A DNA stretch of 21,871 nucleotides from Promethearchaeota archaeon (GCA_016930515.1 JAFGGO010000013.1:1-21871), one strand, 5' to 3'. Shown: positions 5,134 to 21,871, counted from the first letter of the stretch. The notes: generated from the sequence alone by a model not told the origin. Numbers and translations are program-made.

Positions 5134-5547
5134 ATGAATTTCAACGACTACGAAAATTTATTAGACAAAGCCTATGAAAAAATTCCCGATAATGTGAAAA
5201 AATCCAAGAGATTCGAAATACCCACAGTCGAGCTGAGGTTCGAGGGCAAAAACACTTTTATAGTTAATTTTAATAAAATTATCAACACGCTTAATAGAGA
5301 TAAAAATCATTTTACAGGAGTATTCCTAAAGAAAGCAGGTACTTTTGGTGAAATTAGAGGCCAACAATTATTTATGAAATCGCTTCATAAGGAAAAAGTA
5401 TTAAACCGACTACTTGAAAATTATACAAAAACATATGTCTTATGTAAGATCTGTAACAAACCCGACACGGAAATACAAAGGGAAGGAAAAAGATTATTCT
5501 TGAAATGCGAAGCGTGTGGTGCCCGAGAAGAAATTAAAGAGAAGTAA
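5134..5547 (+). CDS. eif2b: Translation initiation factor aIF2 beta subunit
   Basis: YENLLDKAY, RFEIP, TFIVNF, YVLCKICNKPDT...CEACGA Zn ribbon. Confidence 0.95.
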   Translation: MNFNDYENLLDKAYEKIPDNVKKSKRFEIPTVELRFEGKNTFIVNFNKIINTLNRDKNHFTGVFLKKAGTFGEIRGQQLFMKSLHKEKVLNRLLENYTKTYVLCKICNKPDTEIQREGKRLFLKCEACGAREEIKEK

Positions 5548-20386: not shown

Positions 20387-20917
20387 TTATTTTTTTTGAT
20401 TTGCGAAATATATTAACCATTTAGCCATGGCTTGAAAAGATTCTTGTATGTTAATATCTTGTTTAGCTGAGCAAAATACGCATTGATTGCATTTTGCTTG
20501 TGTGGCATATTCGTTAGCTAAATCAAAATCTACCTCGTGGTTTTCTAAATCCCATTTCATACCAAGGAGGATGATTGGAATAAAACCTGCTTTTTGTCTT
20601 ATAATTTTCAACCATTCTGGTACTTCCTTAAAGGTTTCATAGTCGGTGAGGTCAAAGCAGATGAATGCGCCACTCGCACCCTTGCAGTAATCGGGGAGTA
20701 ACTCACGAAAGCGTTTTTCTCCTGCAAAATCCCATAACTGCATTTTTACAGCTTCACCCGTATCAAGTACTTCAGATTTTGTGTGAAATCCCGCACCTAT
20801 GGTCATTTTATATCCTTCTTCAAATTTTCCCGTACAATAACGAGTAATCATCGCTGTTTTACCAACTCCACCTGCGCCTGCAACAATCACTTTAAATATC
20901 CACGAATTTTGCATCAA
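20387..20917 (-). CDS. Rab-like small GTPase (Ras superfamily)
   Basis: FKVIVAGAGGVGKT (G1), TIG (G2), LWDFAGE (G3), MKWD (G4 variant), CSAK (G5); no C-terminal prenylation Cys. Confidence 0.92.
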   Translation of the reverse strand: MMQNSWIFKVIVAGAGGVGKTAMITRYCTGKFEEGYKMTIGAGFHTKSEVLDTGEAVKMQLWDFAGEKRFRELLPDYCKGASGAFICFDLTDYETFKEVPEWLKIIRQKAGFIPIILLGMKWDLENHEVDFDLANEYATQAKCNQCVFCSAKQDINIQESFQAMAKWLIYFANQKK

Positions 20918-21050
20918 TATCCCAATATGTTATTTTTTATTCTATTAATTATATCTCGCTCTGAAAATTTATATTTTTTTTTTAAGGTAAAATAAAAAAG
21001 ATTTTTATAAGATTTTATTCTATTATTTGTTAGTACTCAATTTTAAAATA

Positions 21051-21058
21051 TTTAAATA
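21051..21058 (+). promoter_or_regulatory. Candidate TATA box for aIF1
   Basis: TTTAAATA about 30 nt upstream of the ATT at 21089; the AT-rich context limits confidence. Confidence 0.3.
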
Positions 21059-21088
21059 TCATAATAAGAAAGGTTGTGAAAAGAGCGT

Positions 21089-21415
21089 ATTAAAGACGAC
21101 GATATTTGCCCATTATGTAGTTTCCCAAAAGAACTATGTATTTGTGATAATTTAAGCGCCGACGAGCAACAAATTATTATTTCTAATGCCCGTCGTAAAT
21201 GGGGCCGTATTGTAACCGTTATTACATTTGACGGTAACATCGACGCTAATTTGAAAGATATTCTTACTGAAGCAAAAAAAAAATGTGCTTCAGGAGGAAC
21301 CGTTAGAGGAAACGAAGTCGAACTTCAGGGAGATCACAAGTTTAAGATGAAAAAGTTCTTAATCGACTTAGGATTTCCTGAAGAGAATATAATTATTCAA
21401 GAAGCAATGGATTGA
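21089..21415 (+). CDS. aif1: Translation initiation factor aIF1 (SUI1/YciH), probable ATT start; not in ORF track
   Basis: Frame reads (I/M)KDDDICPLCSFPKELCICDNLSADEQQIIISNARRKWGRIVTVI...KKKCASGGTVRGNEVELQGDHKFKMKKFLIDLGF...AMD*. In-frame TGA at 21077; the first canonical in-frame start is TTG 21251, mid-domain. Confidence 0.88.
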   Translation: MKDDDICPLCSFPKELCICDNLSADEQQIIISNARRKWGRIVTVITFDGNIDANLKDILTEAKKKCASGGTVRGNEVELQGDHKFKMKKFLIDLGFPEENIIIQEAMD

Positions 21416-21471
21416 TTTCATATTTTTCTTTTTTTTATTTTACATCCTAATAAAATACGGGTTATTTCCCC

Positions 21472-21871
21472 ATGAGTGCCTCAAATTATAAGGTTGTTTT
21501 TAGTGGAATGAAAGAATCAGATAGTGAACTTATGACCTTGACTTTTAGAGCAATACCATTGGACCATCAAATTGAAATTGCTCCTTCTTTCCTTCAAAAA
21601 ATAAAAGAGAAAAGTGAAGAAGGAAATAATATTATTCATTTTCGAAATATCAAAGATGTAATAAAACTTGGAAAGGATGAAAATTATAATACTTATGATG
21701 GTTTTTTTGTAGTGTTATATACTTTAAAAAAAGAAGAAAAAAAGGAAGGTTTTTTAATTGCAAAGTCTAAAAAAAAAGGCACATTATTAGTTGGTTATTG
21801 GCCTTTTAATTTAGAAATATTGGAATGGGTAAGAGAAAGTTTTAATGAGTTTTTAAACAGATTTATTGATA
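21472..21871 (+). CDS. Hypothetical protein (3'-truncated by window edge)
   Basis: ATG 21472 opens a frame with no stop to the window end (MSASNYKVVFSGMKES...GYWPFN...). Confidence 0.7.
   Translation, partial: MSASNYKVVFSGMKESDSELMTLTFRAIPLDHQIEIAPSFLQKIKEKSEEGNNIIHFRNIKDVIKLGKDENYNTYDGFFVVLYTLKKEEKKEGFLIAKSKKKGTLLVGYWPFNLEILEWVRESFNEFLNRFID

Follow-up and report, generated by a model that had tools for sequence, protein, structure and literature searches.

Where does translation of the aIF1 gene begin when its reading frame holds no canonical start codon ahead of the first conserved motif of the protein? The question is raised by positions 21,051-21,415 of the window, by which we mean the whole 21,871-nucleotide stretch of Promethearchaeota archaeon DNA analysed here (GCA_016930515.1, JAFGGO010000013.1), which is the entire contig C31 of a 4.0-Mb MAG (35% GC, 94% complete) whose named relatives are Promethearchaeota throughout (i.e. 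Loki-type Asgard archaea). On the plus strand, positions 21080-21415 form an intact SUI1/aIF1 protein frame, and the description of the domain in an earlier note, made from the sequence of the window, holds in every element: the N-terminal zinc knuckle CPLC-x6-CIC (21107-21145, +) aligns with EICPRCGLPKELCVC of Methanocaldococcus jannaschii aIF1 (PDB 4MO0), and the RRKWG, GGTV and ELQGDH motifs lie within the SUI1 domain (21164-21379, +; PF01253 over residues 29-100 of protein P0001). Matches to Pfam PF01253 (55.4 bits against a cut-off of 25.5, E 8.8e-15), to NCBIfam PRK00939 (107 bits against a cut-off of 98) and to 4MO0 itself (E 7e-24, with the alignment beginning at 4MO0 residue 3) all agree with this identification, and the C-x2-C...C-x-C knuckle present here is typical of many archaeal aIF1 proteins. 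A genome search finds a single full aIF1 copy in the 4.0-Mb MAG, as expected of an essential factor. The gene is flanked by a divergent small GTPase gene (20387-20917, -) and a downstream ORF (21472-21870, +) that is cut by the contig end; because the GTPase gene lies upstream on the opposite strand, no other gene precedes aIF1 in its transcription unit. This gene order (divergent small GTPase, aIF1, uncharacterised ORF MSASNYKVVF...; window 20387-21870) is kept across the family (L003-L121).

The aIF1 frame is closed upstream by an in-frame TGA (21077-21079, +), after which the codons read AAA GAG CGT ATT(21089) AAA GAC GAC GAT ATT TGC(21107) CCA TTA TGT, with no ATG, GTG or TTG in frame between the TGA and the zinc knuckle. 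The proposed near-cognate start codon is the ATT at 21089-21091 (+), with the TGA four codons ahead of it. The earlier note had reported the closing TGA, the lack of a canonical start before CPLC and the ATT at 21089, and all three match base for base; moreover, within the genus an independent MAG (G003, contig JBHLMB010000533) has a 5' region identical to that of the window. The earliest in-frame canonical start is a TTG at 21251, and a protein begun there would lack the zinc knuckle and half of the domain. Initiation at ATT 21089 would instead give a coding sequence of 108 codons (21089-21415, +; (M)KDDDICPLC...QEAMD, with a TGA stop at 21413-21415), and the claim that this yields a normal N-terminal length agrees with orthologues that have canonical starts, for example L152, in which GTG ACA GAT GAC GAA ATT TGT matches ATT AAA GAC GAC GAT ATT TGC codon for codon.

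An immediate objection is that the locus is an artefact or a dead gene, whether through a miscounted homopolymer (the A4 run at 21079-21082), through reading of the TGA as an amino acid, or because the gene is a pseudogene. Removal of one A does place the GTG at 21076 in frame, and some ENA gene calls do read the TGA as tryptophan (MWKKSIK...). However, the same layout recurs in dozens of independent assemblies, many of which have no A run (GTGATAAGAC, GTGAATATAG) and carry TAA or TAG as their in-frame stops, which excludes both homopolymer error and TGA recoding; the remainder of the gene, furthermore, is under clear purifying selection and is the sole complete aIF1 in a 94%-complete genome. 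We consider the probability of an artefact or dead gene to be negligible. The suggestion that an extra A in this run hides an in-frame GTG start is likewise refuted as a sequencing error by the relatives that share the layout but have no A run, and a programmed shift is improbable given that the GTG is missing in several lineages.

Orthologous loci were drawn from the same GTDB family and order, from named GenBank contigs and from a phylum-wide sample of 251 genomes, and the resulting family set comprises 114 loci and 85 distinct sequences from at least 12 genera of Promethearchaeota. At the aligned start position these 85 sequences have ATT (77), ATA (5) or ATC (3), here termed the AUH codon, and never ATG, GTG or TTG. 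For 76 of the 85, the stretch from the nearest upstream stop to the AUH codon contains no canonical start in frame, and that stop, which may be TAA or TAG, stands only 2-4 codons away in 74/85. Some relatives have additional in-frame TAA or TAG stops upstream (TGATAA, TGATAATAG, TGAATATAG), many lineages combine TAA or TAG stops with a leader without any A run (GGTTGTGATAA GAC AGC ATT, GTGATAATAG AGC ATT, GTGAATATAG CCT ATT), and in several only one codon, and not a start codon (CCT, CGT, AAA or AGC), stands between the ATT and the last in-frame stop. Since AUU, AUC and AUA are synonymous isoleucine codons, conservation alone cannot separate a start codon from an internal isoleucine, and it is the upstream in-frame stops that carry the argument for a start.

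The pattern of substitution on either side of the AUH codon points the same way. Conservation of the ATT among the 67 ungapped family sequences is 100/100/96% by position, and the five codons that follow it are 94-100% conserved at positions 1 and 2 and 33-88% conserved at position 3, which is a coding signature, while the purine-rich 9-nt spacer that precedes it (AAAGAGCGT, 21080-21088, +, with A at -3) is 45-90% conserved and has no codon periodicity. Sequences L006 and L007 differ by a compensating pair of indels within the spacer, and after the spacer their differences are synonymous only. A second ATT, at 21104 (MCPLC..., the start used in some NCBI calls), was considered as an alternative and rejected, as positions 21092-21106 evolve as coding sequence and the upstream motif discussed below would be 24 nt away. 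Alignment of orthologue 5' ends keeps the AUH codon in 85/85 sequences and finds no uniform ATG or GTG at the aligned position; together with the stops 2-4 codons upstream, the coding conservation downstream and the canonical starts of sister families, this gives strong comparative support to the view that AUU is the initiation codon. Three single-base changes would leave a start-competent codon; the weak codons ATC and ATA are seen in the family, ATG is not, and the absence of ATG over some 12 genera may be taken as only weak evidence of selection against a strong start.

Matched controls are available at the same loci, where the aligned start codon of the GTPase gene is ATG in 62/65 distinct loci and that of the downstream ORF is ATG in 64/68. 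The aIF1A, aIF2-beta and aIF2-alpha genes of the window's genome all start with ATG as well. The unusual start is therefore specific to aIF1, and its recurrence in 85 distinct sequences with ATG neighbours is, on this comparison, a pattern far beyond chance. From these alignments we infer that AUU is actually used as the start codon, and we consider translation of aIF1 from AUU highly probable when the variants weighed below (initiation led by a Shine-Dalgarno (SD) motif, a short leader, and use of the codon without feedback) are taken together.

Comparison with other lineages shows that the family codon aligns exactly with their canonical starts. In the sister family f2 the aligned start is TTG or GTG (L027, L028, L030, L031) or ATA (L025, L026, L029); it is GTG in L152, L130 and L136, and ATG in Odin-, Hermod-, Atabey-, Frey- and Jordarchaeia. 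Weak starts are found in further groups. In Thorarchaeia, the 72 distinct loci (L300-L371) have GTG (59) or CTG (13) behind an AGGAG SD and not once ATG, often with an in-frame TAA one or two codons upstream of the start, as noted for the CTG cases (e.g. L309, L320, L356). In Baldrarchaeia (L144, L145, L228, L233-L235) an ATA stands 9 nt after a perfect AGGAGG, with no in-frame ATG, GTG or TTG, and families f5, f7 and f17, together with one Thor genome, contribute isolated cases of ATA, CTG or ATT. When 80 other loci were sampled from Asgard and TACK archaea (the latter from Bathyarchaeia, Methanomethylicota, Nezhaarchaeota and Nitrososphaerota, with a closer 8-sequence alignment as the locus query), they yielded ATG in 73, GTG in 2, TTG in 1 and no canonical start in 4, all of them Baldrarchaeia. 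Judged by these loci, weak aIF1 starts are lineage-specific but recurrent, and are not a general archaeal trait. Two smaller observations belong here: the baldrarchaeial loci L135/L233 have an out-of-frame ATG 4 nt after the same AGGAGG, and within one genus of family f17 L207 reads TGA ATG ACA ATA TTC where L205 reads TGA ACA ACA ATA TTC, the only start candidate in L205 being the ATA.

How a ribosome might find an AUU in this context is suggested by the sequence immediately upstream. An SD-like motif, AAGGTTGTGA (21070-21079, +), ends 9 nt before the ATT, and its GTGA and AGG are complementary to the 3' end of 16S rRNA, GAUCACCUCCU. The MAG has no assembled rRNA, and the 16S 3' end was taken from a closed genome of the sister family (G032), in which it is canonical (...GGAUCACCUCCUUU); pairing with it is possible for GUGA and AGG, with a 2-nt mismatch between them. 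The motif is thus imperfect, with a complementarity of 7/9 and two central mismatches, and it is also distant, its GTGA starting at -13 as against a genome mode of -10/-11, i.e. at a spacing about 3 nt beyond the modal distance. Upstream of ATG genes in the window's genome GAGGT and GGTGA are enriched, and the GTGA begins most commonly at -10/-11 (55 and 33 cases), with 21 cases at -13.

Conservation of this region is consistent with a ribosome-binding function. Positions -20 to -10 (AAAGGTTGTGA) are 88-97% conserved, while the AT-rich DNA farther upstream varies, and in divergent lineages the motif is replaced at the same register by other sequences complementary to the anti-SD: GAGGTGA followed by 8 nt in the paralogues L018, L185 and L188, GGAAGGAA in L016 and L022, and ACCGTGA in L014 and L017. 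Within one and the same architecture the GTG falls in frame at an 8-nt spacing and out of frame at a 9-nt spacing, which fits a ribosome-binding site and not a start codon. We favour SD-guided initiation at a weak codon by means of a weak and distant SD, the motif presumably acting as an SD on the mRNA. The possibility that AAGGTTGTGA is a shared regulatory element was considered and rejected, since AGGTTGTGA occurs 11 times in the genome, below expectation and with no common context; one of these copies lies 6 nt before an ATG and is itself SD-like. Sixteen diverse leaders (-45 to +48), each folded as a single sequence, had z values from -1.2 to +1.1 and no shared helix, i.e. no conserved RNA structure at the start. 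On the same contig as aIF1, the aIF2-beta gene (window 5134-5547) has an ordinary ATG start with no obvious SD (aaaaagatgatttaaaca ATG).

A different account of how the AUU is found would make the mRNA leaderless or very short-leadered, with the AUU chosen from the 5' end without an SD and AAGGTTGTGA serving as a promoter-proximal or operator element. TATA-like boxes, candidate promoter elements, lie at 21041-21059 (+), with TTTTAAAA at 21041 and TTTAAATA at 21051-21052; across the family, such boxes are conserved at -40/-39 (57/80 sequences) and -30/-29 (40/80), and also at -78. Where genes of the window's genome lack an SD, their TATA-like 8-mers are most frequent 29-32 nt ahead of the start codon, and boxes at -40 and -30, when calibrated on such leaderless-type genes, would place the start of transcription at about -9 or at the ATT itself, leaving the motif outside the mRNA. 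Additionally, SD motifs precede only about a quarter of the genes of the window's genome, a proportion also reported for Prometheoarchaeum (PMC7531240). Several boxes compete in this prediction, however, and in a region so rich in A and T such calls are weak evidence; a further TATA-like box at -78/-86 could drive a leadered transcript, the motif is swapped for other anti-SD-complementary sequences in relatives, and unambiguous SDs (AGGAGG, AGGAG) stand ahead of the non-canonical starts of Baldr- and Thorarchaeia. We therefore regard this account as very improbable. A short-leader or leaderless AUU mRNA is possible, and would alter how the AUU is found and not its being the start.

The start region also contains an out-of-frame mini-ORF, GTG AAA AGA GCG TAT TAA (21076-21093, +), whose TAA (21091-21093) shares one base with the ATT; the report in the earlier note of a GTG at 21076 opening a 5-codon ORF that overlaps the ATT is confirmed by the sequence, and this GTG lies in the +1 frame relative to aIF1. 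The same 5-codon mini-ORF is present in 66/85 relatives, being absent or different in 19, and it may have a modulating role. It could further be argued that translation starts at GTG 21076 and then either undergoes a programmed +1 frameshift near the mini-ORF stop or terminates at the UAA and re-initiates on the AUU. In keeping with this, a GTG occurs at -13 in 72/85 relatives, the stop of the 5-codon ORF overlaps the ATT (as ATTAA or ATTAG) in 66/85, the GTG is in frame at 8-nt spacing in three genera (L018, L021, L024), and in genus g17 an ATG or TTG followed by A6C could be read likewise. Yet none of the three frames contains an ATG, GTG or TTG from the upstream stop to the ATT in L016, L022, L023 and L187, and the lack of an upstream GTG in several lineages makes a GTG start with a frameshift unlikely. 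The mini-ORF extends to 14 codons in the ATC lineage (L006, L007, L045) and stops early in three other sequences, and the last sense codon before its stop varies (TAT, CAT or AAT), so that there is no conserved slippery or shift site. Moreover, the GTG has no SD at a working distance, with GG only 2 nt upstream, and the arrangement of GTGA, 8-9 nt and ATT persists irrespective of the frame of the GTG, which is what one would expect of a ribosome-binding site and not of a start codon. Initiation at the GTG followed by a shift or by re-initiation is accordingly an improbable explanation.

A precedent for such a shift is the prfB gene (RF2), which is autoregulated by programmed +1 frameshifting. 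The aIF1 leader resembles it in that a short upstream frame stops where the main frame continues, in having an SD-like sequence upstream, and in belonging to a translation-factor gene; it differs in having no conserved slippery codon, in that the upstream start is missing in several lineages, and in the variable length of the mini-ORF. Set against +1 frameshifting of the prfB or antizyme type, the family has sequences in which the start is missing (4), a variable shift site, and a mini-ORF length that differs in 6 lineages. In genus g17 of family f2, L025 and L029 have an out-of-frame ATG or TTG, then AAAAAAC, before ATA CCA AAA, and L026 has GTG AAA AAA ATA CCA in frame, such that in this genus either the start is the ATA or a one-base shift is tolerated or used.

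If initiation at the AUU is accepted, the identity of the gene product suggests a function for the weak codon. The AUU at 21089 would be read as methionine by initiator tRNA to give MKDDDICPLC..., with initiation most likely placed by the conserved, imperfect SD-like AAGGUUGUGA, 9 nt upstream and about 3 nt beyond the genome optimum. Initiation complexes that form on codons other than AUG are destabilised by aIF1, so that a weak start in the aIF1 mRNA would lower its synthesis when aIF1 is abundant and raise it when aIF1 is scarce, and the outcome would be negative feedback on start-codon stringency, comparable to that exerted through the AUU of infC and through the poor-context AUG of eIF1. 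The idea of autoregulation derives from discrimination against AUU by Sulfolobus aIF1 in vitro and from the IF3 and eIF1 precedents. In Sulfolobus solfataricus, aIF1 is cited as keeping 30S complexes off AUU mRNA while allowing AUG (ref. 41 in PMC4705826; refs 25 and 26 in PMC6237735), and binding to the small subunit with discrimination against non-AUG codons is known only for the aIF1 of S. solfataricus and of Pyrococcus abyssi (PMC4705826, PMC6237735). Ribosome profiling of Haloferax shows initiation at near-cognate sites (PMC7261190).

The closest precedent in arrangement is bacterial infC, which starts at AUU and whose translation is repressed by its own product, IF3 (Butler et al. 1987, ref. 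25 of PMC4705826). As in infC, the AUU that starts the gene of a fidelity factor follows a ribosome-binding site (a probable one in aIF1) and is conserved across relatives, and AUU is a codon that the factor is known to disfavour; in the family a conserved non-canonical start is found in 85/85 sequences, with no in-frame canonical start in 76/85. However, aIF1 is not a homologue of IF3, being of another fold and an orthologue of eIF1; the feedback is proposed here by analogy, and the aIF1 leader differs from that of infC in its imperfect, distant SD-like motif and in the mini-ORF that overlaps the start in most relatives. With eIF1, which autoregulates through a poor-context AUG (Ivanov et al. 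2010, PMC2964218; cited as ref. 55 in PMC6237735), the likeness is one of homologous proteins (SUI1 domain) and of a stringency factor with a deliberately weak start of its own. Here, by contrast, the weakness lies in the codon (AUU) and not in its context, there being no AUG whose context could be poor; the start would be chosen by an SD or from the 5' end and not by long-range scanning, and the eIF5 antagonist is absent. The aIF1 proteins of S. solfataricus, P. abyssi and M. jannaschii belong to the same family and have the same zinc-knuckle N-terminus, and those studied discriminate against non-canonical starts in vitro (PMC6237735), but the accessible papers on them mention no unusual start or autoregulation.

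A competing interpretation retains the AUU as the start and dispenses with the feedback, the codon either setting a fixed level of translation or reflecting lineage-specific drift that is tolerated thanks to the nearby ribosome-binding motif. The prevalence of plain ATG in other Asgard and TACK aIF1 genes (73/80) is in its favour, as it implies that a weak start is not required for aIF1 function, and so is the fact that the identity of the start codon differs among lineages (ATT, ATA, CTG, GTG or TTG). Drift or a fixed level accounts less readily for a weak aIF1 start that has arisen or been kept in several separate lineages, namely the Loki family, Baldrarchaeia and Thorarchaeia (no ATG in 72 loci), while neighbouring and other initiation-factor genes use ATG. 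Switches from AUG to AUU are, furthermore, extremely rare in prokaryotes at large (1.6e-5, PMC5622118), and the gene concerned encodes the very factor known for discriminating against AUU (as described in PMC4705826). We see an AUU start without feedback as unlikely, albeit a more serious contender than the alternatives discussed above.

Negative feedback is in our analysis the most economical functional reading, although everything beyond the statement that AUU is the start goes further than the alignments themselves. Whether aIF1 does exert feedback on its own AUU is to our minds evenly balanced, and the best explanation as a whole, combining an AUU start, SD-like placement and self-limiting feedback, is one that we hold to be fairly probable. 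A wider version, in which Asgard aIF1 would limit its own synthesis through a near-cognate start (AUU in the Loki family, AUA in Baldrarchaeia, CUG or GUG in Thorarchaeia) that was acquired or kept in several lineages, is tentative, and we place it slightly short of an even chance.

Bacteria (IF3) and eukaryotes (eIF1) both provide textbook examples of fidelity factors that throttle their own synthesis through a weak start; eIF1 has its direct orthologue in aIF1, and no known organisms are more closely related to eukaryotes than the Asgard archaea. The AUU start of aIF1 fits, without proving, a self-limiting feedback of this kind, and the conserved codon offers a testable route to how archaea set stringency and to possible archaeal roots of the eukaryotic circuit. 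If the proposal is true, the autoregulatory logic of IF3 and eIF1 would be found in all three domains and, in the eIF1 lineage, would be older than eukaryotes. The earlier note had suggested that this is undescribed, which is borne out by the full-text-searchable literature, archaeal initiation reviews included and subscription-only papers lying outside it, in that no non-canonical start or autoregulation of an archaeal aIF1 gene is described there; in databases, however, NCBI PGAP annotation already reads the ATT as a start and calls many of these proteins from it (MKDDDIC...), which also counts as an independent call in favour of the AUU start.

Public gene calls for these proteins are nonetheless inconsistent (P0003, P0005, P0036, P0042, P0117), the MWKKSIK... 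version in ENA combining a TTG start with TGA as Trp, and other calls being truncated to 70-90 aa from internal codons. Gene callers restricted to ATG, GTG and TTG truncate or miss the essential aIF1, and marker-gene sets and completeness estimates are consequently distorted for such genomes. The NCBI product name given to aIF1 here, 'stress response translation initiation inhibitor YciH', is the name that the family has in bacteria.

Additional aIF1-like sequences occur both in the window's genome and in its relatives. At the end of contig C70 of the MAG there is a knuckle-only aIF1-like fragment of 33 residues (L002 1501-1600; G000 C70 41003-41101), in which ...DICPHCSFPKELCICE... is 52% identical to aIF1 residues 2-34 and runs on into unrelated sequence, meeting a stop at about 60 residues; a decayed paralogue, a small zinc-knuckle protein and an assembly join are all candidate explanations. 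Some family genomes have a second aIF1 paralogue, 56-63% identical to the first (L185, G024:C2; L188, G124:C23; L018, G022:C222; L187; L023). These paralogues have either a perfect SD, GAGGTGA, 8 nt before an ATT or ATA, or no upstream GTG (ACGGGAWTAAARCTT ATT), and the weak start is present in both copies.
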